Shown in pieces: positions 8,987-64,000 of a stretch of DNA of 64,000 nucleotides (positions within the stretch are counted from its first letter, which is position 1; each line of letters begins with the position of its first letter). This DNA comes from Escherichia phage HK6. The DNA lies in the sequence record PP724615.1; one strand, given 5' to 3'. The position numbers and the translations under genes are program-made. A model generated the notes under the pieces. That model saw only the letters and a program-made list of their open reading frames with translations, did no database searches and was not told the origin of the DNA.

Positions 8987-9691
8987 ATGGCTGGTTCTCG
9001 CAGAAAGAAACATATCCATGAAATCCCGGATGAAGTCTTTAAAAAGGTTATAGAGCATCTGGAGAACGGTGGTACTAAGAAAGCAGCATGTGAAATGCTC
9101 GGCGTATCATCCAATCCAACTATGGAAAGGATGATTGAAGAATGGCAAGACCGCCAGATTCAAGTTGCCGAAATGAAGAAAAAGAAACGTGGTACACTCA
9201 TTGAAGGCATTGAGTTAGCTAACGTTATTGAGCAGTATTTATCTGGTGATTCTTTTGAAGAAATTGCCGATCGTAATTATCGCTCTGTAGCAATGGTCAA
9301 ATCAGTTTTGGAACGCTATGGTGCTTTACTTCGTTTGAACGATATTGTAGACCCATTGAATCCTCCAATTATTCCTGATGATGCTGTAGCAGAAGAATTT
9401 GCAGTTGGTGAGCTTGTTTGGGTTCCTGGATACCAGTGTATAGGCGAAATCAAAAAGGCAATGGATAATCCTGTAGGTTGCTACCGTGTATGGCTTCTAT
9501 CGGAAGGCAAACAACAGAACGTCCATTATATGAATTACGAGCTGGCCTCTGTTAAACATCTGGAAAAATTAGGGGTTGACGTAAAATCTCTAGGGTACAA
9601 GTGGACTCGTGAAGAAGTAATTTCATTAATTAATGAAGCTGTTAAGGCTGCCTTGAAACTTGATAAAGAAAAAGGAAAACGCCGTGAGTAG
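8987..9691 (+). CDS. putative HTH DNA-binding protein, 234 aa
   Basis: Directly downstream of the PN25-type promoter with GAGAGGAG RBS; N-terminal HTH-like segment GGTKKAACEMLGVSSNPTMERMIEEW. Confidence 0.55.
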   Translation: MAGSRRKKHIHEIPDEVFKKVIEHLENGGTKKAACEMLGVSSNPTMERMIEEWQDRQIQVAEMKKKKRGTLIEGIELANVIEQYLSGDSFEEIADRNYRSVAMVKSVLERYGALLRLNDIVDPLNPPIIPDDAVAEEFAVGELVWVPGYQCIGEIKKAMDNPVGCYRVWLLSEGKQQNVHYMNYELASVKHLEKLGVDVKSLGYKWTREEVISLINEAVKAALKLDKEKGKRRE

Positions 9692-9935
9692 GCTAACTGA
9701 TTTGCTTAAAGATGGGGAAGTAAAAACTCTCTATCGTAGAAGCTGGGATAATGATAATAATGGCTTAGTATTACTAACTCTAGATGCTGACTCAGATGTA
9801 GTTACCCAACATACCTGGGTAGCTGGTAATTATCCCTATAGTGAGGTTGTTACGTTAACAGTATGCGAAGCTATTGCCGACGATTGGGAGGTTGCCAGCA
9901 TCGATGATATGCTCGCTGTTGGCCTGGTGGAGTAA
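9660..9935 (+). CDS. hypothetical acidic protein, ~85-91 aa
   Basis: ORF overlapping the upstream gene end; start ambiguous (ATG 9660 or GTG 9687). Confidence 0.4.
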   Translation: MIKKKENAVSRLTDLLKDGEVKTLYRRSWDNDNNGLVLLTLDADSDVVTQHTWVAGNYPYSEVVTLTVCEAIADDWEVASIDDMLAVGLVE

Positions 9936-10038
9936 CTACAGAAAAATTTCAGTTGCTTAATCCTATAATTCTTGATATAATATTCTCATAGTTTGAAAGA
10001 ACTATTCTGTTTAATTCTTAATTAAGGAAATATAAAAT

Positions 10039-10449
10039 ATGACTACTCCAACTCAGTGGACTGATGAACTGTTCGAAAAAATGTCTTCCGAATACGTTGC
10101 TCGCATGGAGCAATTTCCAGAGGATGAACGTCCGGGTGTTAGCATGGAAATTGTTAGCGAAATTGCCCAGGAAAATGGTGTAACTCCGAATGGTTTTCGT
10201 ATGAAGCTAACTAAAGCAGGTGTGTATATCAAGAAAGCTGCTGGCTCCGCTTCTAAATCTAGCGCATCTACTGGAGAAAAAGCTTCTGGTGGTTCTCGTA
10301 CTTCTAAAGCCCAAGCTCATGCCGACCTTCGTTCAGCATTCTCTGATGCTGGCCTAGCACCAGATTTTCTGGATGATGCAATTATCGACAAACTGACCGG
10401 TAAAGCGGCTGCTCATCTGGCAGAAGCAATCCGAGCTATCACTAAGTAA
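10039..10449 (+). CDS. hypothetical protein, 136 aa, Ser/Ala-rich low-complexity centre
   Basis: ORF with AAGGAA RBS; highly optimised codons suggest strong expression. Confidence 0.55.
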   Translation: MTTPTQWTDELFEKMSSEYVARMEQFPEDERPGVSMEIVSEIAQENGVTPNGFRMKLTKAGVYIKKAAGSASKSSASTGEKASGGSRTSKAQAHADLRSAFSDAGLAPDFLDDAIIDKLTGKAAAHLAEAIRAITK

Positions 10450-51836: not shown

Positions 51837-53756
51837 TTAGGTAAGGCGTTGAATTGTTATTTTTACATTAGGTAAGCAAGCTTTTAGCCCAGTTACATTA
51901 CTAACAGAAGCATTTAACCATACGCTAACATTACCATTACCATCATTTTTTAAATAATAAGTTATAGTATAGTATCCAGTTTGTGCATTACCACCATACA
52001 AGCTAGATACCCAGAAAGCTGTAGGAGTAAACATAGCACCACCACCACCAGTAGCATTAACCGCGGTTCCTTTGATAGTCATAAAAGGAACATACTTTCC
52101 TGATGGTAACGATAAAATTTGGTGAAGTTTTTTACTAACTGCATTACTAGTAATTCTAAGACGACTATCGCCTGTGGTTGCTCCTCTATTGAGAATCTCG
52201 TTAGGATTAAAACATCCAATACCACCCGCGGATAACCAAGTATCATCTAAGAATTCCATAGTACATACAATAGCCCCGTCTCTAGCGCTCTGTATACCTA
52301 ATCCCATAGTAGTTAAATGAACTGAACCCCCGCTATTAAATACAACATTCCCTGATAGTGTTGCAGATGCACTCCCAGATATTAAACGTAAAGGTATGTT
52401 ACTCTCACTCCATACATCACCATATTTATTACCTATTTTTGGTGGAGTACTTTGTACATACCAGGAACTAGAAGGCATAAAACTATAAATACTAACAGTA
52501 CTATTAGTTAACCCACTAATATTACCACCTTTGAATAGGGGAACATTACTTCCGTTAGTAACAGGTACTGCAAAGGTAGCTATACCGTTTACTCCAGTAG
52601 AGGCAGAACCACTACTAACATTATTACCAATATTTCGTATATCGGCCCTACTGCCGGGGTTATACCCAGGTTGAACGAAATTTATAAATTTCCAAGAAGT
52701 GGTAGATAGATTAACTCCACGAATGGTAAAATCAGTAGGACTTATTTTTATATCAGACCCTTTAAATAGGTCAGTACCTACAGTAAAGCCACTACCAGTA
52801 TACCTTAGATTAGTAACGTACCATGTAACTTTTTTAGGTGTTACACCTAAACTTTCACTATATATCCCTATAGGACCACCAGGACCATTATTTGGGTCAG
52901 ACATACCCTCCCAATACGCATACCCATGCGGTGCAGCTCTAGCAAAGCCTACAGCCCATGCCATAGAACTAGGATCAGTAGAGTTATAGTTTTTTACCAT
53001 TTCTGCAGCTGAGCTAGCTACCCCCTGTACTTTACCAGCAGTGGTATGGTTTGGCCCATTGTAACCGTAGACTATTCTGGGACAAGATTTGCCGCGTACA
53101 TAGATAGCATTAAAACCTAAACTTCGTGATCCAGGGTGTCTAACTGAGGCACTTTTAACTGTAAGAGTATTTCTATCAGCCACAACATTACTAGAGCCAT
53201 CCCAGGCGGATTTATAGAGTGCTGCACTGCCCATGAACATAGCTGCAGTAGCAAATCCTCGTCGCATAGCATAGGAACCAAACATGTGCTGACAACCAGT
53301 ACCATCTCGTAGTTTTTCTACTACACTACCAGAAGTACCAGTGTTAAAATACCCTACATCTAATGATAGATCAGCACTAGCGGTTATTTGGACTTTATTT
53401 CCACCACCGCTACTAACCTGAGGGTTTGTAGTACCATAAGCTTTTACCCCCACTCCCATGCTCATACCATTTAACATATGCCTAGTACCATCCGTAAACT
53501 CAACTTCAGTAAGAATAACTAAGTTAGAGTCATTATTATGTAGTGCAGCTATCCTACTTGGTAATTCAGCCCAGTAATATTCATTAGTCGCTAGAGCTAA
53601 ATTAGCAGAATAAGTTTCTGTAATAATAACATGAGGCATATTAGAATGAAATATAGTATTATTGTCGGGGTTAATATGCTGATTAATATCTCCTCCACTA
53701 CCCCTTTTTAAAGAAAGAGTAGGAGTGTTATTTAGTCTTCCTGCAAAAAAGCCCAT
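51837..53756 (-). CDS. receptor-binding tail protein (pb5/oad-like), 639 aa
   Basis: Size matches T5 pb5 (~640 aa); divergently paired with an llp-like lipoprotein gene; N-terminus resembles my recollection of pb5. Confidence 0.5.
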
Positions 53757-53776
53757 TTATCCTCCAAAAATTTAAT

Positions 53777-53805
53777 TGCTTAGATTGCTATAATCTTGTA
53801 TAATA
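53777..53805 (+). promoter_or_regulatory. sigma70-type promoter for the llp-like gene (TTGCTT-17-TATAAT)
   Basis: -35 TTGCTT 53777-53782, 17-nt spacer, -10 TATAAT 53800-53805, then TTATAAATTAAATAGAGGAGGA and ATG 53836. Confidence 0.5.
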
Positions 53806-53835
53806 GTATTATAAATTAAATAGAGGAGGATGTAA

Positions 53836-54069
53836 ATGAAAAAATTATTTTTAGCTATGGCAGTTGTGCTTCTTTCGGCTTGCTCTACTTTTGGACCAAA
53901 AGATATTAAATGTGAAGCCTATTATGTACAAGATCATGTTAAATATAAGGCTAATGTTTTTGATAGGAAAGGGGATATGTTTTTAGTGGCACCAATTATG
54001 GCTTATGGGTCATTTTGGGCTCCTGTAAGCTATTTTACTGAGGGAAATACCTGTGAAGGAGTTTTCTAA
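53836..54069 (+). CDS. llp: small lipoprotein (Llp-like, receptor-masking superinfection exclusion type), 77 aa
   Basis: Signal peptide with lipobox LLSAC; small size; divergent from the receptor-binding protein gene as in T5 oad/llp. Confidence 0.65.
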   Translation: MKKLFLAMAVVLLSACSTFGPKDIKCEAYYVQDHVKYKANVFDRKGDMFLVAPIMAYGSFWAPVSYFTEGNTCEGVF

Positions 54070-54370
54070 AGAGAAGCCCTTCCAGGAACTCATGCCACTT
54101 GAGATGAATCCTAGGGCAAAAGCAATTCACGATGCAATTAATGAAATCATTCAGGGCGTCATACAAGACACTAGGGAAGATGTAATGGGAACATCATTTA
54201 TTCTAGAAGAATCTGGATTTGATGAAATGATGAACCTCGTAGGAACAGTTATAATGGTTCGTGCAATTGCTAGAATATTCCAAATACCACATTTACGGGA
54301 GCATGAAAGACATGTCAAACGGCAACAAAAGAAAGAACAGACGCGGAGAAGTGTACGAAGCGTGGATTAA
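54053..54370 (+). CDS. hypothetical protein, 105 aa
   Basis: ORF overlapping the llp stop; no motif. Confidence 0.4.
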   Translation: MKEFSKEKPFQELMPLEMNPRAKAIHDAINEIIQGVIQDTREDVMGTSFILEESGFDEMMNLVGTVIMVRAIARIFQIPHLREHERHVKRQQKKEQTRRSVRSVD

Positions 54371-54446
54371 CATTTACGGATTTGGTTTTGTATTATTCCT
54401 AGTCTTCGTAGGTTTTTGGTTAGCAGCTATGGCGGGGTGGATCTAA
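54312..54446 (+). CDS. small membrane protein (C-terminal TM), ~45 aa
   Basis: ATG 54312 with GGGAG ~10 nt upstream; C-terminal hydrophobic helix GFGFVLFLVFVGFWLAAMAGWI; overlaps the 3' end of the previous ORF, so one of the two may be spurious. Confidence 0.3.
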   Translation: MSNGNKRKNRRGEVYEAWINIYGFGFVLFLVFVGFWLAAMAGWI

Positions 54447-54601
54447 TGGAATGGGTAATTATTGGCATATTCGTCTTGTTAATACTTCTCTTTGTAGGCT
54501 TACGTGTAATAGATACCTCTGTAACCCAAACAGAAATTAAATTAATGCAGTTGAGTAATAGATTATCTAGAATCGAAACTTTATTAGAGGAGCGTAAATA
54601 A
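54446..54601 (+). CDS. small single-pass membrane protein, 51 aa
   Basis: MEWVIIGIFVLLILLFVGL TM helix followed by charged helix ...RLSRIETLLEERK; start within the track ORF 54416-54601. Confidence 0.45.
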   Translation: MEWVIIGIFVLLILLFVGLRVIDTSVTQTEIKLMQLSNRLSRIETLLEERK

Positions 54602-54708
54602 TGGAATGGGTAATTATTGCACTACTAGGGATTGTGATTATTGGGCAGTGTATTCTAGATAATCACTTAGCTAGAATTGAAACCTTACTATCGGAGAAAC
54701 GTAAATGA
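54601..54708 (+). CDS. small single-pass membrane protein, paralog of the previous, 35 aa
   Basis: MEWVIIALLGIVIIGQCIL...LARIETLLSEKRK; start overlaps the previous stop (TAATG) and its stop overlaps the next start. Confidence 0.4.
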   Translation: MEWVIIALLGIVIIGQCILDNHLARIETLLSEKRK

Positions 54709-54899
54709 TGGAGGTGGCGGTTACACTAATAGTAATATTAGTCTGGGTAATCCTCATTGTCTCTCGTATCGTGTATCTCCGCCTAAAAACTCTAGAAGCT
54801 CAGGTGAAACAACAACAAGTTATTCTAGAAAAGCTAGTACTACTGCAACGCTGTGATAGCACCCGTATTCTGCAAATTGAGAGGGAATTAGATGTTTAG
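54705..54899 (+). CDS. small single-pass membrane protein, 64 aa
   Basis: N-terminal TM helix VTLIVILVWVILIVSRIV followed by a coiled-coil-like tail; translationally coupled. Confidence 0.45.
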   Translation: MMEVAVTLIVILVWVILIVSRIVYLRLKTLEAQVKQQQVILEKLVLLQRCDSTRILQIERELDV

Positions 54900-55137
54900 T
54901 ATTGTAGTTGCTTTTATTATCGGGGTACTCGCGGGGGTTTTCGGGACGACTGCGGCAATCAACAAGCATCGTAAATATATTGCGGAAGTATCGCGGGAGA
55001 TTGCGGAAAGGGAGCGGAAGTTTGACGAGAAACGTGCGGAGTTTGAACGAGAATGGTCGGATGGATCTCGGGCGTCGCGGAAGAGATTTCGCATGTCAGA
55101 ATCAGGAGACAAGCCGGTAGACAGGAGAAGCTCATGA
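54892..55137 (+). CDS. small single-pass membrane protein, 81 aa
   Basis: N-terminal TM helix FSIVVAFIIGVLAGVFG followed by a highly charged tail (REIAERERKFDEKRAEFEREW). Confidence 0.45.
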   Translation: MFSIVVAFIIGVLAGVFGTTAAINKHRKYIAEVSREIAERERKFDEKRAEFEREWSDGSRASRKRFRMSESGDKPVDRRSS

Positions 55138-55607
55138 TATTTAAGAAGATTCCAGATGAAATAGCTGGTAGCTTCTCATATGACCCAGATACAGGACAAT
55201 TCTCCCCTATTGTAGGGTATACAAAGGAAAGTGAAGGATATCTTGTATACCGTCACCCTAAATTTGGGGAGTTTAAGGTACATCGCCTAGCGTGGTGGTA
55301 TACCTACGGAGAAGATCCTGGAGAGTCTCTAATAGACCATAAGAATTGTGAGGGATTTGATAATAGAAAGAGTAATCTTCGTAAAGCATCCCACGAGCAG
55401 AACTTAGCAAATCAGCGATTATCAAAGAATAATACCTCAGGGGTTAAGGGTGTATATTGGGACAATACTCGTAAGAAGTGGAGAGCACGCGGGAGATATC
55501 AAGGAAAATATTTTATCTCGGCCTACTTCGAGAGTCTCGAGGAAGCTGAGAGTGCAATAAGGGAAGCACGTGAGAAAGTGTGTGGTGAGTTCACAAATCA
55601 CGGTTAA
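55134..55607 (+). CDS. HNH homing endonuclease with AP2-like domain, ~157 aa
   Basis: HRLAWWYTYGEDPGESLIDHKNCEGFDNRKSNL (HNH_3 pattern) and GVKGVYWDNTRKKWRARGRYQGKYFISAYFESLEEAESA (AP2-like); ATG 55134 with AGGAG RBS. Confidence 0.6.
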   Translation: MIFKKIPDEIAGSFSYDPDTGQFSPIVGYTKESEGYLVYRHPKFGEFKVHRLAWWYTYGEDPGESLIDHKNCEGFDNRKSNLRKASHEQNLANQRLSKNNTSGVKGVYWDNTRKKWRARGRYQGKYFISAYFESLEEAESAIREAREKVCGEFTNHG

Positions 55608-55780
55608 TAGCGCTAATTTGGAAATCTTGAAATTTCATAAGATTACACATACGGGTGTGCCCAGTGGCTAGGGGGAGAATACTTAGTCTGCTAACCGCCA
55701 CCCCCGTTACTATTACCATGCTAACTATTTCACCCTGCAACCATTTTAATTGCAAGGTGAAACAATTTCAACTTTAATTA

Positions 55781-56515
55781 TTACGCAACCTTTAGTTTCT
55801 CAATATATTGTTGCGGGCTGCAACTATATTCTGCGCGTTCTTCTTCTGTCATACTTTCCCAACATAGTTTTAAGCGATCGGCTAGGAACTGATAATCATT
55901 ATCATCCTCAAGAGATTCATCAATAAAGGTTCCGCCTATCAATGCCACGCCGATTGATAGAATATCATTAACGGCTTGCGCGTCCAACGTTTTAAATCCA
56001 TATGATGCCGCCGCCGCCAATACTCCTTTATGATCATCAATCATTGTAAAATCAGCGTTCGGATATAGTTGCTTAAATAATTCAAAATAATAACTTTTAT
56101 ATACTGCGTCCTTGCTGTGGTATATTTCGCTAACCTTATCAGCCTCAAAATATTTATGCAGTGTATCGCGGGAAAATACACGGATATTGGTATCCCCACG
56201 CCCGCGCAATCCTTGCTTGCGTAGGAAGTAATAATCTGACTTGCTCATCAGGCGAGCGGTGCAAATAATGTTTAAAGTATTTGCGTCATTCATGCATTGG
56301 CGCATATATTCCACCAAAGGCAATAAGGTATCTCGCATTATTAAATGATGTTTGCAAGCCTCGTTTTTGTATTTATTTAAATTTAAATTCCCGTCGCTAT
56401 CAAAGCAAGGCGCGACACGATGAAACGAATTAACGATAGTGCCATCAAGATCCCAGATCATGACGCGGGTAATATGCGGAAAAGCGCGGGTAATATTCGT
56501 TTTTACTTGATTCAT
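55781..56515 (-). CDS. dmp: HAD-family 5'-deoxyribonucleotidase (dmp-like), ~244 aa
   Basis: HAD motif I MIWDLDGTIVNS and motif IV MIDDHKGV; first pre-early-type gene on the minus strand; start chosen at ATG 56515, which has the conserved GGAG element (track ORF extends to 56557). Confidence 0.55.
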   Translation of the reverse strand: MNQVKTNITRAFPHITRVMIWDLDGTIVNSFHRVAPCFDSDGNLNLNKYKNEACKHHLIMRDTLLPLVEYMRQCMNDANTLNIICTARLMSKSDYYFLRKQGLRGRGDTNIRVFSRDTLHKYFEADKVSEIYHSKDAVYKSYYFELFKQLYPNADFTMIDDHKGVLAAAASYGFKTLDAQAVNDILSIGVALIGGTFIDESLEDDNDYQFLADRLKLCWESMTEEERAEYSCSPQQYIEKLKVA

Positions 56516-56595
56516 TTTGTTACGTTCTCCAATAAAGGGATGTAGTTTATCCAGCATTACCCGCTATTTATCAGCGGGCAATAATAAATCAACTA

Positions 56596-56988
56596 TTAAA
56601 GACCATAAGCCAACGCATCAGCGATATAACTAATATCTTCGCCGGATACATGGGAACGAATGCCCGCGCATGTAAATACCTTCGCGCTCATTAGTTGATC
56701 ATCAAAGCAAGCCGGACAAGGCGCGACAACTGCAAACGCTAGGCCGGATTTTACGGCGTCGATGATAATCGTTTCCTGCTTCACCGTATCAACATAAACG
56801 CCGGCGGCCTTGATGTGACTACTTGCACGGCCTTGCGTATAGGCGAAAGTCGTGATCTGTAGCGCCTCATTAAACTCAATTAAATCATCAACAACGTGCC
56901 CCGCCTCAACGTGATACCGCTCACCATTTGAATAAACCAGAACAATGGAAGATTGAGCGCGATCGAATGGAATATTTTGCTTTTTCAT
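56596..56988 (-). CDS. hypothetical protein with HxE ... PCxxC zinc-motif pattern, 130 aa
   Basis: HVEAGH and PCPACFDD are reminiscent of cytidine/dCMP-deaminase-fold Zn sites, but their spacing is longer than typical, so assignment is tentative. Confidence 0.45.
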   Translation of the reverse strand: MKKQNIPFDRAQSSIVLVYSNGERYHVEAGHVVDDLIEFNEALQITTFAYTQGRASSHIKAAGVYVDTVKQETIIIDAVKSGLAFAVVAPCPACFDDQLMSAKVFTCAGIRSHVSGEDISYIADALAYGL

Positions 56989-57055
56989 ATTTATAAAACT
57001 CCAATTAATTTAATAAGGGGCATAAGCGGGGTATATACCCCGCTTATAAATTTAA

Positions 57056-58726
57056 TTATGCGAAAAATTTGCCGTTTTTAAAGTCAATCAAAGTGCGCTG
57101 CCCGTTGGCGTATGTAATTAAATGCGTTTGCGTCCAGCTTGACGCGCCAACGTTATAGCCCATATCTAGGGAACCAGCGACGCCCGCTGTGTATACGCCG
57201 CCGTATATGCTGGCGGTGTGGGTGTGCCCCGTGTTTAACTTGCCCAATTTCTTAAACTGTTTAGGATTGCCACGGCTGCCGTTAATGCCGTTGTGACCGT
57301 GTACGCCGCACTCAATGCCTGCAATTTTAAATGATTGGTCAGTGGTCAGGAAAATCGCGTTAAACTCGCAACCTGCAACCGTACGCAGCGCATAATCTAG
57401 CACGTTGAAAGTATCGTCATGATTACCGATTGCCGCGTAAATCGCAGCATTAAGGCGGTGATATAGTTCCGCATTGGCTGGATCGTCTTTAATGTTAGCA
57501 TTACGATCATCAAGCCAACGAGATAACGCCAGATCGTGGTTTGATTCGACAATGATCGTTTGACTAAAATCGCGCTCCATTGACTCCAGCACGCGCCCGG
57601 TGTCGATGAGATCATCCAGAACCTTATCACGTCCGGCTGCATACTGTTTCGCTAGAAATACACCTGAAGCGCGGTTGTGATGGTTGCGTGATGTAAAATC
57701 ATGCACGTCATGCACAAACTGATATTTTGGCTTGAGAATATCCACTAGCCCATAAGTATCACCGTGCCCCCATGACGCAGCGGCGCACTCCTCATCTAAT
57801 TTTTCAGCGTGTACGTCGCCATACTGCAAGCCTAAAACATGCCCCGACGTTTCAAAACATCCGGCGGGGGTCGCGCAAATATTCAGATCGTAAAACATGC
57901 CGCTTTCGTCCATCGTTTCAAGCTGGCGAACAAAAAATTCCCCGTCCTCGTCGAACTCAACAATCAGCGCGCCGTAATTATGCAATGCTTCAGCTTTTTG
58001 CCCTGCTTTCTGCTGAATGTAGTTTTTAAGTGTTGCCGTTCCGGTTGAGTACATGCGGCGCACTACTTCACCTTTGAGAGCTGGTACGCTTTCTGCGGTG
58101 ATTTTAGCGTGACCAATTGCCAGACCTTCAATATTCAAAGCCGTTGCAGTTTCTGCAAATCCAGACAGCGGATAGTCTGCGGTCGGTAGTACGTTAATTT
58201 CAGCCATGAAAGCGAAACGGCGGTTATTTAAAAACACGTTCTTATTGCAGATATATTTGTCAAAAGCGGAATCATATTTTACACCGTCTGCGCCTTCCCC
58301 ATTCTGGAATCCGTTTTTGTTATAAATATACTTAGAAACAAGCAAATCAGCGCCGATAAATTGGGCGTATTGCTCCAACGCGGCTAAAAAGTTTTTATGC
58401 GGGAAAGTATTATTCTGAATCGATGTAATAATAAAGCGTTTACCTTGTTTTACTTCCCACTGTTCCACCGTGCTAGAAATAATTCCAGCCGCTTCGGGGC
58501 GCTCGTCGTTTTTGATAGCTTTTACAGCTTTCGCCGCTTTTGGTTTTGCTGGTTTATTTGCTTCTAACCAATCACAAATCGCGGTCGAGTGTTTCGTTGT
58601 ATCGTAGACCGCTTTTGAAATATCGTCGCAGACTTCCAGCTTAGTAGCGCGCAGACGTTTACCATAGAAATTAAAGTCAGCGGCCAGCTTCAGGATAACG
58701 GTTTGTTTTTCTGCGGAAATAATCAT
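57056..58726 (-). CDS. A1: A1-like pre-early protein, calcineurin-like metallophosphoesterase, 556 aa
   Basis: Phosphoesterase motifs GDVHAE, GDTYGLVD, VESNHD, GHTHT; 556 aa equals the size I recall for T5 A1; location in the pre-early-type block. Confidence 0.6.
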   Translation of the reverse strand: MIISAEKQTVILKLAADFNFYGKRLRATKLEVCDDISKAVYDTTKHSTAICDWLEANKPAKPKAAKAVKAIKNDERPEAAGIISSTVEQWEVKQGKRFIITSIQNNTFPHKNFLAALEQYAQFIGADLLVSKYIYNKNGFQNGEGADGVKYDSAFDKYICNKNVFLNNRRFAFMAEINVLPTADYPLSGFAETATALNIEGLAIGHAKITAESVPALKGEVVRRMYSTGTATLKNYIQQKAGQKAEALHNYGALIVEFDEDGEFFVRQLETMDESGMFYDLNICATPAGCFETSGHVLGLQYGDVHAEKLDEECAAASWGHGDTYGLVDILKPKYQFVHDVHDFTSRNHHNRASGVFLAKQYAAGRDKVLDDLIDTGRVLESMERDFSQTIIVESNHDLALSRWLDDRNANIKDDPANAELYHRLNAAIYAAIGNHDDTFNVLDYALRTVAGCEFNAIFLTTDQSFKIAGIECGVHGHNGINGSRGNPKQFKKLGKLNTGHTHTASIYGGVYTAGVAGSLDMGYNVGASSWTQTHLITYANGQRTLIDFKNGKFFA

Positions 58727-58823
58727 AGTAATAAAACTCCATTAAAGGGATTAAAAAACGTTTGTTATTGGCAATATTGCCAAATATAACGCCTCCAATA
58801 ATAGGCGTTATAATTTGCAACAT

Positions 58824-59021
58824 TCAACTAATAGGCATCAGGCTAGAACTAACACCACAAACAACGGCGGCAATAAAACAAATCAGACCTAAACGCTTTG
58901 CCAGCCTAGATTTGCGTTTAAAATAATACGAATCTAAGTCATTTTGAAAATATGCGAACAATAACGAGGCCGCCATAATAAATAAGCCTAGAATGAGCGA
59001 TTCAGTGGGGTAAAAGATCAT
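58824..59021 (-). CDS. small two-helix membrane protein, ~65 aa
   Basis: Hydrophobic segments LILGLFIMAASLLFAYF and LGLICFIAAVVCGVSSS; ATG 59021 preceded by the conserved TTAATTGGAGTT element (track ORF extends to 59069). Confidence 0.45.
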   Translation of the reverse strand: MIFYPTESLILGLFIMAASLLFAYFQNDLDSYYFKRKSRLAKRLGLICFIAAVVCGVSSSLMPIS

Positions 59022-59078
59022 TTTAATAACTCCAATTAAAGGGAAATTATAGTGGGGAATAATCCCCACTAATTAAAT

Positions 59079-59486
59079 TTATTCACCTGCGGCCTGCTTT
59101 ACTTCATCGGCAACGCCCAATAATTGCGCCACAGCGTCCAATGTTTCTAATTTCGCGCTTTCAAGGCTTGCCAGATCATCGGCGTCCTTGATAATGCCGG
59201 AATCGATGGCATGTTTTGCAATTACTCGCACGTAATGAGCTTTACGGATTGAGCTGCCGCCGCCTACTTTGCGCGGCTTGTCGCTTTTCTGATAGGCTTT
59301 CGCGCTGGTCAATTTCGAACGAACTGACACGGGAGAAGCCGCGCCCACTGCCTTTGCGATCTCTTTCAAGCCGTCGCTGTTTGCGAATTCTAGCCCGTTT
59401 TCATTGATTAACTGCTGATACATGGAAACAGCCTGCTGAGTGTTTTCTTCGTTCCAGGAAAATTTTGCGGCTTTAACGTTAGTCAT
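59079..59486 (-). CDS. A2: A2-like pre-early protein, 135 aa
   Basis: Size (~15 kDa) and position downstream of A1 in the pre-early-type operon; conserved TTAATTGGAGTT element before ATG. Confidence 0.45.
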   Translation of the reverse strand: MTNVKAAKFSWNEENTQQAVSMYQQLINENGLEFANSDGLKEIAKAVGAASPVSVRSKLTSAKAYQKSDKPRKVGGGSSIRKAHYVRVIAKHAIDSGIIKDADDLASLESAKLETLDAVAQLLGVADEVKQAAGE

Positions 59487-59587
59487 GGTAAAAACTCCAA
59501 TTAATTTAATTTAAGGGATTAAATGATTAACATAATGTTAATCGTTATATGCCCCGAACTACTGGGGCATATAAAGTTAACACTATA

Positions 59588-59839
59588 TTATAAAACGGCT
59601 TCCCATTTTTCGTTGCGTTGAACAACCTTTACAACGTCGCCAGATTTAACGCGAACGCTAAAAACGGTTTTTCCGTTGTTACTGCGCTCATTTTCAGCGT
59701 ATACCGCGTCAATTGTATCGAACGGCATGAGCGCCGCGCCTTTAATACGTTCGGCTTTTCCGGTTAATTCATCCGTTTTAGTAACGAAAGGAATAAAAAC
59801 GGATTGACCAACTTTCGGCGCATTAATAACGTTTTTCAT
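59588..59839 (-). CDS. hypothetical pre-early protein, 83 aa
   Basis: ORF with ACCGGAGTT element 11 nt upstream of ATG, same operon and orientation. Confidence 0.5.
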   Translation of the reverse strand: MKNVINAPKVGQSVFIPFVTKTDELTGKAERIKGAALMPFDTIDAVYAENERSNNGKTVFSVRVKSGDVVKVVQRNEKWEAVL

Positions 59840-60274
59840 GGTATAAACTCCGGTTTATTTAGTGGATTGTTCCGCATTATCTGCTACTTTCTAGCAGATA
59901 ATAAGAAAAAATCCGCTCGCCATTATAAAATCAATTTAAGGAACTCCACGCGGGCCGCTATATCCCAGTTAGGGGGCGGGATGCATTATGGTAAGCACCG
60001 ACCGTCAAATTGTATCAAGTTATCGCTCTTATCGAACTGGGTACATCTTAAAGCCTATCGGCTAGGGTGTCAAATAGTTTTTTCGTTTTCTTTTAAGTTA
60101 GGATTTTCCCAACTGAATATCATTTCGCAAAATATTTTCCCATCTTTATGATGGTAAGCTATTTCGCTTCCGTGGTTCGCGCAAAAACTGATCACTGCTT
60201 CAGCTTGTTCTACCGTGATATTGTTAGCCGTTTCTTTGATTTTCATATCGTCGATTCCTTATATATAATAGATA

Positions 60275-60334
60275 AGTTTACCGCCGATAGGCTTTAAGAT
60301 ATACCCAATTTTTAAAGAGCGCGGCGGTAAACTT
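60275..60334. repeat. 13-bp perfect inverted repeat separated by 34 bp
   Basis: AAGTTTACCGCCG (60275-60287) and CGGCGGTAAACTT (60322-60334). Confidence 0.6.
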
Positions 60335-60952
60335 CCCGCCGTGTAGTTCGTCATTGCCGCCCTACGAGATAAATAATAACAAACAACGAAAAAGGCGCAA
60401 CCTTATATTTGTAAAGAAATGTAAAGACAAACGCCACCGGACACCATGCGGCGGGCTGGGCGCGGCGGCCCAAAATTAAAAGAAACGGGCGCGCGAATAC
60501 CACAAAACAAAGCAGATAGGCAAGTAATTTTTTTTATTTATATTTGCTTTGCCCTACTTGACAAAACCTAAAAAGCTCGTGGCAGCGATAAACGGCTTAT
60601 CCCCTTATGATGGGATGGCTAAAAACTTTACTGCGTTCTGGGGCGTTTTAGGCCGCCTATTATCGACTTAACAAATCATTAACAAAAGCAAAATTGAAAA
60701 ATAGTTGTAAAAGGTCTTGACTTTTAAAAATCAAGGGGCGTTGCGTTAATTTATTAAATAAAATATTTGACTTTTATTTGTTAGTATGCATCGGAAGGAT
60801 AGCAGACTAATAATTGCTAGGATGATAATCATGCTGGTGGATTGTAACGGCCTGAATTATTAGCAGACTATTAATCACGGAAAATCTCATTAGCCAACTA
60901 ACTATTTCATGATATATAATATACTTATAAATTAATGAGAAATAATAAATAT

Positions 60953-61060
60953 ATGAAATCATCACCATTATAATAATAACTATATGAAATCATCACCGTT
61001 ATAATAATAACTATAAGAAATTATCACCATTATAATAATAACGATAAGAAACTATCGGCA
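60953..61060. repeat. 31-bp direct repeats, about 3.5 tandem copies
   Basis: ATGAAATCATCACCATTATAATAATAACTAT / ATGAAATCATCACCGTTATAATAATAACTAT / AAGAAATTATCACCATTATAATAATAACGAT / degenerate fourth copy. Confidence 0.8.
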
Positions 61061-61085
61061 TAAGTGAGAACCACTATCATTTAAG

Positions 61086-61106
61086 TTATCCACAACGTTA
61101 TCCACA
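61086..61106. promoter_or_regulatory. two tandem consensus DnaA boxes
   Basis: TTATCCACA at 61086-61094 and 61098-61106, matching the TTATNCACA consensus. Confidence 0.6.
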
Positions 61107-61152
61107 GCACAAAATAACTTGACACAATAGGCGGCGATATGGGGACTTTTGC

Positions 61153-61195
61153 ACAGACTTATCCACAGGTTATTCCACTGTATAAATATACAGGG
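61153..61195. repeat. left copy of a 43-bp inverted repeat (DnaA box + SOS-box-like palindrome)
   Basis: ACAGACTTATCCACAGGTTATTCCACTGTATAAATATACAG: DnaA box 61159-61167, CTGT-N8-ACAG palindrome 61178-61193; ~39/43 identical to the reverse complement of 63947-63990. Confidence 0.65.
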
Positions 61196-61459
61196 TAGAA
61201 AGATAGTGTTAACGACTGCAATCAATTTTAAGCGGCCTAAAACGCTTTCTAACGAGCTAAACGCTGCGGGGCAATATTAAAGTAAAGACCCAACGCGTCG
61301 GCCTGGTGGCCTCATCGTGTTTTGCTCTTTACTACACCGCTGCGCGGTTAGCATAAAACTAGGCGTTAGGCAAGGAAAATAAAAAAGTAAAATAATCTTT
61401 GCCTATGCTAGAAAATTACCCTTATCATTCACTCACCGATTAACGAGAGGGCCGAACAA

Positions 61460-62452
61460 ATGAGGCTATATAAACCAGATAACGCAACCGTCTTAAAAGG
61501 TGCGCTGCGTAACCTGCTGGATGGTAGCAGAACAACCAGCATCCGGCATTTTGTTTTCAATATTGAAACTATTCATCAAAACTTTTTTGATGAATATGAT
61601 GCTTATAATATGAATAGTTTTCTACCGTTATATAAGCAAGGGGCAACGCTTGTTTTGTATAATCAGGATTATCAATTGCTCACTAGTCGGGGGCCGGATA
61701 CTGATTTCATAATTGTAAAAGGCAACACAGTAAAAGCCTATGATACTGGGGCGAGCTTAGAAGTTTTTTCAATAGAAAACTATGAGGCCAATGATAATGA
61801 TCTTTATGACGTAGAAAATTTTCTTGATTCATTTTGGCGTTATTTATCAGTTGGCTGGAATCGGTCGGATTCTGATGGGTATCGTTTTGCGGCTATAATG
61901 GCCTTTGATGATAACGGTAATTTTTTGCTACCGTCGGAACTATACCCGTATGTTTATAATGATCTGATACAGGAAGCCGGTTTTACTTTCTGGAAAGATG
62001 AAAATCAGCCTATTGACAATATAGAAAAACATGCTGTAAATTCTAACACTCAAAGCGTTATCGCTCAAACTACTGAAAATAAAGGAAAAAACACCATGAC
62101 CAAGATTGCTAACATCGTTGCCGCTAATAAATCCGCCGTTGTAAACGCTGCAAAACTGGAAGCGGGTAAAATTGCACTAACTCAAATCACGAAAGTAGCG
62201 GCTAAAAAAGCGCCGTTCATGATCAAAGGCTATATTGATACGCCGATTGGTCGCGTAGTGATCGCTAACCTGCTGAGTGTAGCGGTTGACCAGTACGCCC
62301 CGAGTAATCAAAAAGCGAAAGCGGTAGCGGGGGCGGCTATGGAAGCGGCAATGTTGGAAATGGTGCAAAGTTTTAACATCGCTGAGATGATCGATGAAAT
62401 GGTAAAAGGTATCGATATTTCTACTTTTACCAATAACACCGAAAACGAGTAA
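61460..62452 (+). CDS. hypothetical protein, 330 aa
   Basis: ORF with GAGAGGG RBS; first gene inside the inverted-repeat-bracketed segment; no motif. Confidence 0.55.
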   Translation: MRLYKPDNATVLKGALRNLLDGSRTTSIRHFVFNIETIHQNFFDEYDAYNMNSFLPLYKQGATLVLYNQDYQLLTSRGPDTDFIIVKGNTVKAYDTGASLEVFSIENYEANDNDLYDVENFLDSFWRYLSVGWNRSDSDGYRFAAIMAFDDNGNFLLPSELYPYVYNDLIQEAGFTFWKDENQPIDNIEKHAVNSNTQSVIAQTTENKGKNTMTKIANIVAANKSAVVNAAKLEAGKIALTQITKVAAKKAPFMIKGYIDTPIGRVVIANLLSVAVDQYAPSNQKAKAVAGAAMEAAMLEMVQSFNIAEMIDEMVKGIDISTFTNNTENE

Positions 62453-62537
62453 TAACTAGCCTATTGTAAAGTTTTGTAAAGGTCGCCTTTTATGGTGGCC
62501 TTTTTTGTTATAATGCCTTTACACCGTTTGAGGACGG

Positions 62538-62801
62538 TTGAAAATTTTCCCAAAATTTTGGAGGCTTATAATGGTTGCTTTTTCTTCTTCTGACGCTCTT
62601 TTCACTGGTAAAGGCTGGGTATCAAATCGCTGGATTATTCAGGAAATGGTGCAAGAATACGGCATTGCTAAAACTTATACTACCATTCAGGCGCTTTATG
62701 ATAATGATCAAATCGATCAGCAAACGGCGGGCTTTTTACTGGATACCCTGAAAGCGGAACATTGCACCGAAAAGCAAGCCGCCAAAATTGTTTTAATGTA
62801 A
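62538..62801 (+). CDS. hypothetical protein, 87 aa (start uncertain)
   Basis: ORF followed by a hairpin (GGGGCGATACTTTCGCCCC) at 62811-62829. Confidence 0.4.
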   Translation: MKIFPKFWRLIMVAFSSSDALFTGKGWVSNRWIIQEMVQEYGIAKTYTTIQALYDNDQIDQQTAGFLLDTLKAEHCTEKQAAKIVLM

Positions 62802-62850
62802 TTAATAACGGGGCGATACTTTCGCCCCGATAACTAGGGGAGTATTAAAA

Positions 62851-63000
62851 ATGGTTATTTTTCAAGCTTTTTTAGCGGGTATCTTGGGCGCTATCTTATC
62901 GTTGTTTGCAATAGCTTTCGACGTTCACGCGGTTATTATTGGCGCGGGTATCGCTGTATTTTCTTATCTGCTGGGCTGCATGACTAGTAAAGGAGAATAA
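62851..63000 (+). CDS. small hydrophobic membrane peptide, 49 aa
   Basis: ATG 62851 with AGGGGAG RBS; product MVIFQAFLAGILGAILSLFAIAFDVHAVIIGAGIAVFSYLLGCMTSKGE; below the track threshold. Confidence 0.35.
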   Translation: MVIFQAFLAGILGAILSLFAIAFDVHAVIIGAGIAVFSYLLGCMTSKGE

Positions 63001-63002
63001 AA

Positions 63003-63215
63003 ATGATCCGCAACGTTTCTCTTGCACGTTCGAAAGGTTTTAAGCTGGTGGATGTTAACACGTTCGAGCGTCCAGACTGTAAAATCGAATATGTAGCACG
63101 TAATAAAAATGCCTTTCGTGTTACTGAAAAGAAATTCGACAAGCGCGGCAACGTGGTCACTGAAACGGTTAAATATTTTGCCACCTTTTACGCTGCATTT
63201 CGTGGGGTACTATGA
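63003..63215 (+). CDS. hypothetical protein, 70 aa
   Basis: ORF with AAAGGAGAA RBS supplied by the 3' end of the preceding small ORF. Confidence 0.5.
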   Translation: MIRNVSLARSKGFKLVDVNTFERPDCKIEYVARNKNAFRVTEKKFDKRGNVVTETVKYFATFYAAFRGVL

Positions 63216-63337
63216 AAAGCGTTATTGTTGTTCTCCTTGCAATGGCTGGCGGTTTTATCGCCACCTTATTTAAGAATGACCCCGTTTCGCTGGGGATCTT
63301 TATGCTTTTATCGGGCTATCTGATCGGGAGGCTATAA
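63212..63337 (+). CDS. small hydrophobic membrane peptide, 41 aa
   Basis: ATG overlapping the upstream stop (ATGA); product MKSVIVVLLAMAGGFIATLFKNDPVSLGIFMLLSGYLIGRL; below the track threshold. Confidence 0.35.
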   Translation: MKSVIVVLLAMAGGFIATLFKNDPVSLGIFMLLSGYLIGRL

Positions 63338-63338
63338 A

Positions 63339-63683
63339 ATGATCATTTACGAGGGAAATCGCTTTGTTGCTAACTGCCGCCCGGCATTATTAGCAAACTA
63401 TTTGAATCAGCTTTCCCCAGCTTATAAGGGCGTTATTAATATTTATGAGGGCAAGGCGCATTATAAAATCAATGCGGTCGTTGCCCGTGAACTAGCGTTT
63501 CAATTTTTAACCTTCGCATCTTGTGATATTCAGGTCATGGGTGAGGCGTTAATTGCAGAAAATGAGGATGATTTTATTAATATTTTTCGCAAGATATGCA
63601 CCGAGCGCCTGATAATCAAAGGCGCATATATTCAATCCACGGCCGATAGTATTGAAACAGCGTTTCGAAAGGTGGCGCAATAA
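63339..63683 (+). CDS. hypothetical protein, 114 aa
   Basis: ORF with GGGAGG RBS, translationally coupled to the preceding peptide gene. Confidence 0.5.
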   Translation: MIIYEGNRFVANCRPALLANYLNQLSPAYKGVINIYEGKAHYKINAVVARELAFQFLTFASCDIQVMGEALIAENEDDFINIFRKICTERLIIKGAYIQSTADSIETAFRKVAQ

Positions 63684-63946
63684 GATTATATAATCACGGG
63701 GCGCAACTATCGAGAAGTGCCCCCAATTTTCAAATGATAATCATTCTCATTTGACCGCGCCCGCGATGGTTAGCCTGCTAATGGTTAGGGTGTTACGTGT
63801 CGCCTTGTGTGATCGTTAGCGAGCTAACTAATTTTCAAGCCTCCTCCAATTTTGCCCTTGTTTTAGTATCCCCACCAAAATTAAACGCGTTAGAATGCGT
63901 TTGAGAGCGTTTTAACGCTATATTAGAACTATTCACTGCGTAGGAA

Positions 63947-63990
63947 TACTGTATATTTATACAGTAGGATAAGCTGTGGATAAGTCTGTT
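63947..63990. repeat. right copy of the 43-bp inverted repeat (SOS-box-like palindrome + DnaA box, opposite orientation)
   Basis: TACTGTATATTTATACAGTA (CTGT-N8-ACAG) at 63947-63966 and TGTGGATAA (reverse DnaA box) at 63975-63983. Confidence 0.65.
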
Positions 63991-64000
63991 AATAACGCCT

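Follow-up and report, generated by a model that had tools for sequence, protein, structure and literature searches.

Codon usage and composition of the pre-early genes in the predicted terminal repeat of the T5-like Escherichia phage HK6

Genes and boundary of the right-end block

The window analyzed here is a stretch of 64,000 nucleotides from Escherichia phage HK6 (PP724615.1). Its right end carries a block of pre-early genes, which is preceded by a homing-type endonuclease gene and contains the following features:

55053..55607, plus strand: HNH_3 and AP2-like homing-type endonuclease, last gene of the unique region and a lineage-variable insertion
55658..64000, no strand: predicted terminal repeat, first ~8.3 kb of ~10 kb; right-end position, adjoining late genes, with homology to the T5 and Spc35 repeats
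55781..56557, minus strand: dmp (deoxynucleoside-5'-monophosphatase) homologue, collinear with T5.001; GC 39.8%, GC3 0.385, AGA 0 of 14 Arg codons
56596..56988, minus strand: T5.002-like pre-early ORF of 130 aa, collinear with T5 939-1334; GC 47.2%, GC3 0.446
57056..58726, minus strand: A1 (DNA transfer/host-DNA degradation protein), 556 aa; GC about 46.3-46.4%, GC3 0.469, AGA 0 of 20 Arg codons
58824..59069, minus strand: small pre-early ORF occupying the place of T5.005 (membrane protein), collinear with T5; GC3 0.37
59079..59486, minus strand: A2 (DNA-binding protein required for second-step transfer), 135 aa, matching T5.006 in length and position; GC 49.6%, GC3 0.526
59588..59839, minus strand: T5.007-like ORF (Pfam DUF7177, E = 7.5e-42)
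59840..61459, no strand: divergent control region that separates the leftward and rightward pre-early operons, including AT-rich 60.5-61.25 kb; T5 hegG absent
61460..62452, plus strand: T5.011-like ORF of 330 aa (Pfam DUF7566, E = 4e-114); GC 40.0%
62478-62503: terminator-like hairpin after the 330-aa ORF; T5 is also annotated with a terminator after T5.011
62538-62801, 63003-63215, and 63339-63683, plus strand: three small pre-early ORFs with the positions and lengths of T5.012, T5.014 (Ung-dependent nickase), and T5.015; GC3 0.39-0.42

T5 nucleotide 1 aligns at window position 55658, and the right repeat of Spc35 is annotated to begin at a position equivalent to ~55659. The block shares 87% nucleotide identity with the T5 LTR over 7.5 kb and 92-93% with Salmonella T5-like phages (megablast). 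Because the left end of T5 aligns at 55,658, we assign the block at ~55,658-64,000 by homology to the direct terminal repeat, i.e., the first-step-transfer DNA, of a T5-like phage (Demerecviridae), with dmp, A1, and A2 among its genes. The possibility of a terminal repeat, already raised in a preliminary description of this DNA, is thus supported by homology to the annotated T5 and Spc35 repeats. The window ends before the injection-stop region, so that ~1.5-2 kb of the repeat lie beyond it, as would its second copy.

The order dmp-002-A1-005-A2-007, divergent control region, 011-015 is shared with the repeats of T5, Spc35, BF23, and GSP044. As in T5 and its relatives, the repeat adjoins receptor-binding and terminase genes, and its left boundary is identical to the nucleotide. 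A1 shows 95% amino acid identity to T5 A1 and 98.6% to its homologue in Salmonella phage SP01, and the collinear ORFs of 213 and 345 nt have exactly the lengths of T5.014 and T5.015. T5.003 and hegG are missing from the HK6 block. The T5 annotation places pre-early promoters in the region equivalent to 59840..61459; a consensus promoter scan of this control region in HK6 gave a score not above shuffles.

HK6 further differs from T5 and its relatives by the HNH-AP2 gene, which matches Pfam HNH_3 (E = 3.2e-8) and scores 28.2 bits for AP2, just below the family cut-off of 33.3. Its 3' end lies 51 nt upstream of the repeat, in agreement with the earlier placement of such a gene at the boundary, and Spc35 lacks the segment corresponding to window 55092-55609. 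In codon choice, the gene resembles the rest of the phage (AGA 6 of 15 Arg codons, no GCGC, CpG o/e 0.88). It is a separate insertion outside the pre-early signature.

Compositional shift and codon usage

GC content is 41.4% at 55,701-64,000 and 39.1% at 1-55,700. Single change-point fits placed the step in bulk GC at 54,920 (LLR 12.4, 0.390 to 0.418), in GC3 at 54,316 (LLR 75.8, 0.291 to 0.418), in CpG at 54,920 (LLR 116), and in GCGC at 55,600 (LLR 61, 0.56 to 6.67 per kb). The 8.3-kb window with the highest GC content begins at ~54.8 kb (0.417 against a mean of 0.393, sd 0.010). The fits and this maximum agree with the direction and position of the step described previously, whereas the 45-52% GC reported for the block was an overestimate: only A1, A2, and the ORF at 56596-56988 reach 46-50%, the highest 500-bp window has 48.8%, and GC falls to just 30-31% at 60,501-61,250 and is 39.5% over 60-64 kb. 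The reported enrichment of GC at third codon positions is clear: weighted GC3 reaches 0.42 in pre-early genes and declines to 0.315 in the early and 0.267 in the late class (Mann-Whitney p = 1e-5 and 3e-6). No such difference between pre-early and other genes is seen at GC1 and GC2. The small GC excess is a by-product of a distinct synonymous-codon dialect.

This dialect is defined by the near absence of AGA, which supplies 1 of 73 Arg codons in pre-early genes but 19% of them in early and 32% in late genes, together with reduced use of AGG, ATA, and GGA and a preference for CGC, GGC, GCG, CCG, ACG, AGC, and TGC. In early and late genes, codons ending in T or A are favored, and AGA and ATA are heavily used. 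ATA accounts for 9% in pre-early, 15% in early, and 27% in late genes, and rare E. coli codons for 3.8, 6.1, and 7.4%, respectively (Fisher p = 8e-5 and 5e-9), so that the use of AGA, ATA, and rare codons climbs from pre-early through early to late.

The correlation of codon frequencies with average E. coli genes follows the same order (r = 0.82, 0.57, and 0.48). The host-only tAI, calculated with tRNA gene copy numbers taken from general knowledge, is 0.308 for pre-early, 0.286 for early, and 0.277 for late genes, and adding the T5 tRNAs gave a larger gain for early and late than for pre-early genes. Relative to ribosomal-protein genes, CAI is flat (0.37-0.39) across gene classes: pre-early genes resemble average host genes, not highly expressed ones. 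The earlier proposal that genes translated ahead of phage tRNA production have host-like codon usage is supported by codon frequencies, AGA depletion, and tAI, with the qualification that CAI shows no such trend. Among two-fold Y-ending codons, the preferred C form is not raised; pre-early genes use TTC and TAC as often as the other classes or less. CTA shows little reduction in the window (18% versus 20-25%), although its E. coli tRNA is scarce, and GCG is enriched without a host-only tRNA behind it. The block had also been described as closer to E. coli in composition. Its Karlin dinucleotide distance to E. coli (147-184) is not smaller than that of the early region (116-158), and the GC3 rise is not conserved.

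AGA depletion recurs in six other lineages of the Demerecviridae. The AGA fraction of Arg codons in pre-early genes and in the rest of the genome is.08 and.24 in T5,.06 and.16 in KpGranit,.20 and.46 in RP7,.10 and.20 in D333,.05 and.43 in My1, and.09 and.43 in GRLPWR. Codon-shift vectors correlate between lineages with r = 0.39-0.74, and the same shift is found in Proteus, Pectobacterium, and Vibrio phages. Klebsiella phage KpGranit keeps the AGA, ATA, and GCGC contrasts without a rise in GC3. The A1 dS is 0.76 against T5 and >2 or undefined against other lineages; with pS values of 0.71-0.81, synonymous sites are saturated between lineages, and the pattern must therefore be actively maintained.

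These data bear on the distinct evolutionary origin that the preliminary description had offered as an alternative, in which the pre-early module would have come from a genome that was host-like or richer in GC and would still be on its way to the phage's composition. The likeness to average E. coli genes would fit such an acquisition, as would the very large Karlin distance that separates the repeat from the remaining phage DNA (226-245, compared with 75 between early and late regions) and the occurrence of A1 homologues in unrelated phage groups of Caulobacter, Rhizobium, Flavobacterium, and others. We nevertheless consider it extremely improbable, given that GC1 and GC2 equal those of the rest of the genome, that the module has been inherited vertically and remains collinear across seven lineages with A1 identity from 95% down to 34%, and that the same shift appears in phages of Proteus, Pectobacterium, and Vibrio. 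Moreover, at saturated synonymous sites an inherited signature would have been erased unless maintained.

Alternatively, pre-early genes might be less codon-optimized and show the neutral phage composition, with early and late genes shaped by selection. The pre-early GC3 is indeed near the genome GC of 0.39, and early and late genes favor GCT, GGT, CGT, ACT, and TCT, as highly expressed E. coli genes do. However, the homing-endonuclease genes of T5, which are under the weakest constraint, show the opposite style (AGA 40-77% of Arg codons, CpG o/e 0.27-0.79), non-coding DNA adjoining the repeat has a CpG o/e of 0.71 and no GCGC, and the near absence of AGA in HK6 and T5 (3 of 85 in the latter) is stronger than neutrality predicts. 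Relaxed selection is thus quite improbable.

GCGC excess in the repeat

GCGC occurs at 6.6 per kb in the repeat, roughly 10 times its density in the early (0.43) and late (0.73) regions (Poisson P = 2e-38), and reaches the E. coli level (6.7 per kb) despite a GC content of 41%. An excess is present in five of the other lineages: T5 (5.4 per kb in pre-early DNA, 0.7-1.4 in the rest), KpGranit (6.0 and 1.5), RP7 (3.9 and 0.85), My1 (4.6 and 0.9), and GRLPWR (3.1 and 0.76). Vibrio phage D333 shows almost no contrast (3.0 and 2.4). When synonymous codons were shuffled within genes, pre-early codon junctions showed an excess of CpG (z +4.9) and GpC (z +6.5), and 44 GCGC sites were observed against 28 expected. 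In early and late genes, CpG was reversed (z -6 to -6.8) and GCGC fell below expectation.

The coincidence of the composition boundary with that of the repeat (GCGC change-point at 55,600 versus 55,658) and the effect on both opposite-strand operons could reflect a regional mutational bias tied to terminal-repeat status, for example GC-biased heteroduplex repair, strand-displacement synthesis during repeat duplication, or host repair of first-step DNA. Such a bias is very improbable, since the shift is codon-specific (TTC, TAC, and GAC are not increased, while AAA and TTT are), KpGranit has the codon contrasts without the GC3 rise, and intergenic GC in the repeat (0.38) is below the coding GC3. 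T5 provides two further arguments: the non-coding injection-stop part of its repeat is not enriched in GCGC (1.85 per kb), and hegG, an HNH gene inside the repeat, uses codons like the bulk of the phage (AGA 4/10, GC3 0.23), in contrast to the other 16 T5 pre-early genes (AGA 3/85).

A further explanation is selection on the nucleic acid itself, in which first-step DNA or its transcripts need CpG/GpC-rich words such as GCGC and second-step DNA is purged of them. Candidate readers or causes would be the T5 nicking system (consensus R/GCGCRGG), A1-dependent shut-off and DNA degradation, which strike pre-early as well as host genes, or host H-NS or Rho, which would silence AT-rich DNA. The E. coli-like GCGC density, the opposite deviations from the codon-shuffle expectation, and the recurrence in five lineages are consistent with this explanation. 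GCGC positions are also slightly better conserved against T5 than average 4-mers (73% versus 61%), GCGC is contained in the T5 nick consensus (PMC3517423), and T5 DNA escapes A1 in some way. On the other hand, codon choice alone yields most of the gain (from 7 to 28 of the 44 sites), the 55 GCGC sites have no flanking consensus, and none matches the nick consensus on the nicked strand in the window's portion of the repeat. The low GCGC density of the T5 injection-stop part and the weak contrast in D333 also speak against it. Since dozens of GCGC remain on second-step DNA, depletion alone could not shield it from a GCGC-directed nuclease. We therefore regard selection on the nucleic acid as unlikely. 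The cross-boundary excess of CpG, GpC, and GCGC is not explained by tRNAs; it seems rather more likely to belong to the same adaptation to host coding style than to serve a separate function at the DNA level.

tRNA supply during pre-early expression

Internal controls run counter to a foreign origin, to a mutational bias of the region, and to relaxed selection. The codon dialect is probably caused by translational selection set by tRNA supply. The repeat DNA is the first to enter the cell, and its pre-early genes are expressed before the remaining genome enters. We found no tRNA genes in the 64-kb window or in any pre-early block examined. In T5 they lie 28-41 kb into the genome, outside first-step-transfer DNA, and include Arg(TCT), a tRNA at least 95% conserved in about 456 close relatives; in relatives, tRNA-Arg(TCT) lies ~37.8-45 kb into records beginning at or near the left end. 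Pre-early proteins would thus be made while ~24 phage tRNA genes, including those for tRNA-Arg(UCU) and the tRNA-Ile for AUA, stay in the capsid on second-step DNA, and pre-early genes would therefore have to suit the tRNA pool of the naive host. In early genes, and still more in late ones, codon choice may be adapted to a pool to which phage U34/G34 tRNAs have been added. D333, whose tRNA cluster lacks a tRNA-Arg gene, has the smallest contrast in AGA; My1, in which Arg(TCT) is present, has a large one.

Cowe and Sharp in 1991 and Kunisawa in 1992 reportedly found that codon usage in phage T4 varies with the time of expression and is linked to phage tRNAs. In T4, a virulent coliphage with tRNA genes of its own, later genes likewise use more phage-tRNA codons and early genes are nearer to host usage. 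In T5-like phages, however, the separation is physical as well as temporal, with the tRNA genes outside the cell during pre-early translation, and the contrast is correspondingly sharp (AGA 1% versus 19-32%) and coincides with a structural genome boundary. T5 shows the same codon and GCGC contrast in its own repeat.

Mioduser et al. (2017; PMC5683454) report that temporal gene classes of phages differ in synonymous codon usage and attribute the early/late differences in part to tRNA-pool adaptation, nucleotide bias, and GC content. The text of that study mentions neither 'phage T5' nor 'pre-early', and it describes no class bounded by a terminal repeat and no word-level asymmetry like that of GCGC. 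Phage tRNAs have been described as compensating for a codon-usage mismatch or for host tRNAs that are lost (Yang et al., 2021, and van den Berg et al., 2023, both as cited in PMC10644984). Such models explain the host-rare codons in the bulk of a T5-like genome and cover the genes that gain from phage tRNAs; the pre-early genes of HK6 would represent the complementary class, which is unable to gain from them.

Identity and borders of the GC-rich block

Megablast with 55,000-64,000 as query matched 501 phage records, and all top matches were T5-like Salmonella and Escherichia phages (GSP044, 92.6%; Spc35, 92.7%) whose annotations include A1, A2 and deoxynucleoside-5'-monophosphatase. In a three-way alignment, nucleotide 1 of the T5 genome fell on position 55,658, and blastn placed the start of the annotated right terminal repeat of Spc35 (record position 108,779) at about 55,658-55,659. 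The gene order of the block is collinear with the left repeat of T5, with dmp, 002-like, A1, 005-like, A2 and 007-like genes followed by a divergent control region and then 011-, 012-, 014- and 015-like ORFs. Because both repeat starts align here and the genes are collinear, we assign 55,658-64,000, on alignment, to the first 8.3 kb of the ~10-kb direct terminal repeat, i.e., the DNA injected in the first step. This is a known structure and textbook T5 biology, and the two alignments support the suspicion of the preliminary description that the block is the terminal repeat.

The layout of the window and the main genes of the block are as follows.

up to ~27.5 kb, plus strand: early (replication) genes
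27.8-53.8 kb, minus strand: late genes (tail, head, terminase and a 639-aa pb5-like receptor-binding protein)
following the late genes, plus strand: a few small ORFs
55,658-64,000, final part of the window: terminal-repeat block
55781-56557: dmp, collinear with and equal in length to its T5 counterpart
57056-58726: A1, 95% amino acid identity to T5 A1
59079-59486: A2, collinear with and equal in length to its T5 counterpart

A1 and A2, both required for second-step transfer, share one leftward operon with dmp. Its position after the late genes makes the block either the right-hand repeat copy or, in a collapsed assembly, the only one; many deposited relatives were assembled with one collapsed copy. 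The one copy in the window is cut at 64,000, a second identical copy at the opposite genome end would fall outside the window, and positions equivalent to the non-coding injection-stop region of T5 (9140-10149), which has repeats, palindromes and the 7.9% nick at the inner end of the repeat, lie beyond the window end. Genes were called with our own greedy longest-ORF procedure, and the confident pre-early set omits four tiny ORFs in 55.6-61.3 kb that have no T5 counterpart. Scanning 55-64 kb for consensus promoters and terminators gave no matches above shuffles. The most AT-rich part of the block, 60501-61250 (30-31% GC), lies between the two divergent pre-early operons, and T5 hegG is absent there. 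Near its inner end, the Spc35 repeat has an inverted match (76.5%) to a 132-nt segment at 61062-61193.

An HNH-AP2 endonuclease gene had been described at the boundary, and it is indeed there: the ORF at 55053-55607 matches HNH_3, with an AP2 match slightly below threshold, and stops 51 nt short of the repeat. In Spc35 precisely 55,092-55,609 is missing, which marks the gene as a variable insertion. Its 44% GC is distributed over every codon position, its codon style is that of the rest of the phage (AGA in 6/15 Arg codons, no GCGC, CpG o/e 0.88), and its presence shifts the bulk-GC step ~0.7 kb leftward. The composition of this gene is a phenomenon separate from the signature of the block. 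The interval from the receptor-binding gene to the HNH gene holds four small plus-strand ORFs (53836-54899) with intermediate GC3 (0.22-0.37), very low CAI (0.22-0.33) and normal AGA use; compositionally, they belong to second-step DNA. Between flanks that are 92-93% identical to Spc35, the receptor-binding protein gene (51837-53756) and the adjoining downstream stretch show no DNA-level alignment to that phage over 51866-54291; by this pattern, 51866-54291 appears to be a swapped host-range cassette.

Third-position composition and codon choice of the pre-early genes

Change-point fitting detected a step in both GC and GC3. The GC shift reported in the preliminary description was correct in direction and place but overstated about three-fold in bulk GC, which is 39.1% before 55,700 and 41.4% after (43.2% in 55.7-60.0 kb, 39.5% in 60-64 kb). 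Among all 8.3-kb windows the GC maximum falls on the block; the proposed 45-52% is true of only three genes, A1 has 46.3% and the highest 500-bp window 48.8%. In bulk GC the change-point lies at 54,920 with an LLR of 12.4, and in GC3 the LLR is 75.8. As had been proposed, third positions are GC-richer, GC3 being 0.42 in pre-early genes vs 0.315 in early and 0.267 in late genes (Mann-Whitney p = 1e-5 and 3e-6), and GC1 and GC2 are the same in pre-early genes as elsewhere. The effect is real and is located at third codon positions.

Codon shares by gene class
Codon; pre-early; early; late
AGA (share of Arg); 1% (1/73); 19%; 32%
CGC; 49%; 10%; 9%
GGC; 41%; 15%; 11%
GCG; 31%; 8%; 9%
CCG; 43%; 16%; 9%
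ATA; 9%; 15%; 27%

Gene classes separated by expression time differ significantly in synonymous codon usage, as is described for T4. Codon frequencies of early and late genes correlate at r = 0.97, those of pre-early genes at 0.74 with early and 0.67 with late genes. The correlation with average E. coli genes falls from 0.82 (pre-early) to 0.57 (early) and 0.48 (late), and the E. coli tRNA-based tAI, weighted by tRNA gene copy numbers taken from general knowledge, is 0.308 for pre-early genes vs 0.286 for early and 0.277 for late genes (p = 0.02 and 0.01). When the T5 tRNA set is added, early and late genes gain more than pre-early genes. Agreement with host codon usage was judged against E. 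coli only. From the K-12 genome we compiled reference sets of 31 ribosomal-protein/EF genes and 19 dcw-cluster genes. [quoted passage not shown] The view that genes translated before phage tRNAs are made use host-like codons is therefore largely supported by the correlation, tAI and AGA, but not by CAI, and an optimisation like that of highly expressed host genes is ruled out.

A CpG and GCGC signature conserved across the family

The repeat contains 55 GCGC in 8.3 kb (6.6/kb), compared with 12 in the 27.6 kb of early and 19 in the 26 kb of late DNA, and equals E. coli DNA (6.7/kb) despite only 41% GC. The GCGC change-point is at 55,600, and the switch in style occurs within about 60 nt of the physical repeat boundary. 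CpG o/e is 1.44 in the block vs 0.65-0.80 elsewhere and GpC o/e 1.60 vs 1.1-1.2; the most enriched 4-mers are GCGC, CGCG, CGCC, CGGC and CCGC, the most depleted AGAG, TAGA, CTTC and GTAC. The Karlin dinucleotide distance of the repeat from the rest of the phage is 226-245, that between early and late DNA 75. By the same measure E. coli is at least as near to the early region as to the repeat, whose CpG and GpC overshoot the host; a host-like genome signature is ruled out as a general statement.

By shuffling synonymous codons within genes, we separated codon choice from effects at codon junctions. Written in early/late codon usage, the pre-early proteins would yield 7 GCGC and in their own usage 28, whereas 44 were observed (z = 3.6); in early and late genes the count falls short of the expectation from their own usage (11 vs 25 and 19 vs 33). 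Across codon junctions, CpG is over-represented in pre-early genes (z +4.9), the direction also taken by E. coli genes, and under-represented in early (z -6.0) and late (z -6.8) genes. Screening all 4-mers after synonymous shuffling in five lineages, with matched early and late controls present for some of them only, showed CGCC, CTAG and GCGC enriched and GAAC, GGCC and CTCT depleted.

No longer motif emerged around the GCGC sites of the repeat, whose flanks are flat, and the T5 nick consensus R/GCGCRGG (PMC3517423) has no match on the nicked strand inside the window repeat. Matches to this consensus lie at 24650 and 2679 on the minus strand and at 56483 and 62941 on the plus strand. The one at ~24650 corresponds in position to the annotated T5 nick at 78,573, and the two within the repeat (56483, 62941) are both on the opposite strand.

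The contrast between block and rest recurs in the relatives that we compared.

AGA use and GCGC density in first-step blocks and the rest of the genome
Phage; AGA/Arg, block vs rest; GCGC/kb, block vs rest
T5;.08 vs.24; 5.4 vs 0.7-1.4
Klebsiella KpGranit;.06 vs.16; 6.0 vs 1.5
Proteus RP7;.20 vs.46; 3.9 vs 0.85
Pectobacterium My1;.05 vs.43; 4.6 vs 0.9
Vibrio GRLPWR;.09 vs.43; 3.1 vs 0.76
Vibrio D333;.10 vs.20; 3.0 vs 2.4

Codon-shift vectors correlate between lineages (r = 0.39-0.74), and KpGranit shows no rise in GC3 (0.46 vs 0.47); the conserved feature is therefore the codon and word contrast, not GC. At synonymous sites, the A1 gene of the window has diverged by 0.76 from that of T5 and to saturation from those of all other lineages; the signature is present all the same, so it is maintained rather than inherited. 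A distinct evolutionary origin, the other interpretation offered for the block, is accordingly not supported: with GC1 and GC2 unchanged and the signature kept despite saturated synonymous sites, the block does not behave as a horizontally acquired compositional island.

T5 provides internal controls. Its hegG, a homing-type HNH gene inside the repeat, resembles the rest of the phage in codon style (AGA 4/10, GC3 0.23), whereas the other 16 T5 pre-early genes use AGA in 3/85 cases. In the eight HNH genes that lie elsewhere in the first 100 kb of T5, 40-77% of Arg codons are AGA and CpG o/e is 0.27-0.79. Neither GCGC nor CpG is enriched in the non-coding injection-stop part of the repeat or in the non-coding DNA that adjoins it. 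Taken together, these controls speak against relaxed selection and against a mutational process linked to the repeat.

Possible causes and significance

No tRNA genes were found within the 64-kb window or in the first-step blocks of five relatives. The T5 cluster, which includes Arg(TCT), lies at 28-41 kb, that of My1 at 27-41 kb and that of D333 ~30 kb from its own first-step block. The T5-type tRNA-Arg(TCT) is at least 95% conserved in about 456 close relatives and, for records starting at or near the left end, lies ~37.8-45 kb in. During pre-early protein synthesis the phage tRNA genes would therefore be outside the cell, beyond being merely untranscribed. Such an arrangement fits the near-absence of AGA, the lower use of ATA, AGG and GGA, the rise of these codons from pre-early through early to late genes, and the host-only tAI result. 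The contrasts in AGA, AGG, ATA, GGA and ACA, like tAI, fit the pattern of host-poor codons served by phage tRNAs. Translational tuning to a host-only tRNA pool is probably the main cause of the pre-early codon style.

My1, which carries Arg(TCT), has a large AGA contrast, and D333, whose cluster lacks tRNA-Arg, the smallest; that the AGA contrast tracks the presence of tRNA-Arg is suggestive at most, coming from two lineages. The D333 (L011) cluster, at 62.8-69.6 kb of its record, comprises 17 predicted genes without a tRNA-Arg, one of them with an odd 4-base anticodon call, and this phage also has the weakest contrast between pre-early genes and the rest.

Tuning to the tRNA pool does not account for the preferred use of GCG, for CTA staying unchanged in the window, for the reduced TTC and TAC or for the CpG/GpC excess at codon junctions, and the additional CpG/GCGC layer beyond codon choice is left unexplained by it. 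Selection at the nucleic-acid level on CpG- and GCGC-rich words, acting in addition to translational tuning or instead of it, is in our view unlikely.

We also considered that the tenfold asymmetry in GCGC and CpG words, rather than being a side-effect of codon choice, is how T5-like phages tell DNA apart. Second-step DNA would be purged of words typical of host DNA, these words would be read by a phage function (A1-dependent degradation or shut-off, or a GCGC-centred nicking system), and first-step DNA, retaining host-level word density, would share the fate of the host. Recent work describes A1 as necessary and sufficient for host DNA degradation and leaves the escape of unmodified T5 DNA unexplained. 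First-step DNA is the part of the genome nearest to the host, not farthest from it, in GCGC density and codon choice, and CCWGG and GGWCC restriction sites have been purged from it more than from any other part. That purge fits reports that only first-step DNA is restriction-sensitive (PMC10644984). We consider DNA discrimination highly improbable as the cause of the asymmetry. If true, the shared fate would account for A1 shutting off host genes and pre-early genes alike. The contrast in codons and words bears in itself on the question of how T5 keeps its unmodified DNA intact when A1 degrades the host chromosome.

GGWCC is absent from 70 kb of pooled first-step blocks of seven lineages (the window and the relatives L002 and L006-L010), and all 21 sites in the first 100 kb of T5 lie outside the repeat. 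CCWGG density is 0.17/kb in the pooled blocks, ~1.1/kb elsewhere in the phage and 3.0/kb in E. coli; the window repeat has 2, with 9.1 expected at the density of the rest. Five Chi octamers (GCTGGTGG) lie on the plus strand of the window (12428, 13753, 23035, 60833 and 63044) and none on the minus strand, with ~0.4 expected per strand. In 100 kb of T5 the plus strand carries five and the minus strand one, and the positions of three sites are conserved. The plus-strand orientation is that recognised by RecBCD entering from the right genome end.

A general study (PMC5683454) reports a difference in codon usage between the early and the late genes of phages, and text searches found neither 'phage T5' nor 'pre-early' in it. 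Full-text searches of the literature on T5-like phages returned only remarks on whole-genome codon usage, and an earlier mention of the asymmetry is possible. What this analysis adds is that the codon and word partition is family-wide and sharply bounded, with a CpG/GCGC layer beyond it. Possibly new is that first-step DNA throughout the family is written in a synonymous dialect distinct from the rest of the genome, in which AGA is nearly absent, the CpG bias is reversed and GCGC is tenfold denser. The two dialects constitute a natural experiment on phage tRNAs, in which genes that can never use them stand beside genes that always can. GCGC density and AGA use can also serve as a sequence-only marker that places the boundary of the first-step DNA and terminal repeat, useful for the many T5-like assemblies with collapsed or permuted repeats.
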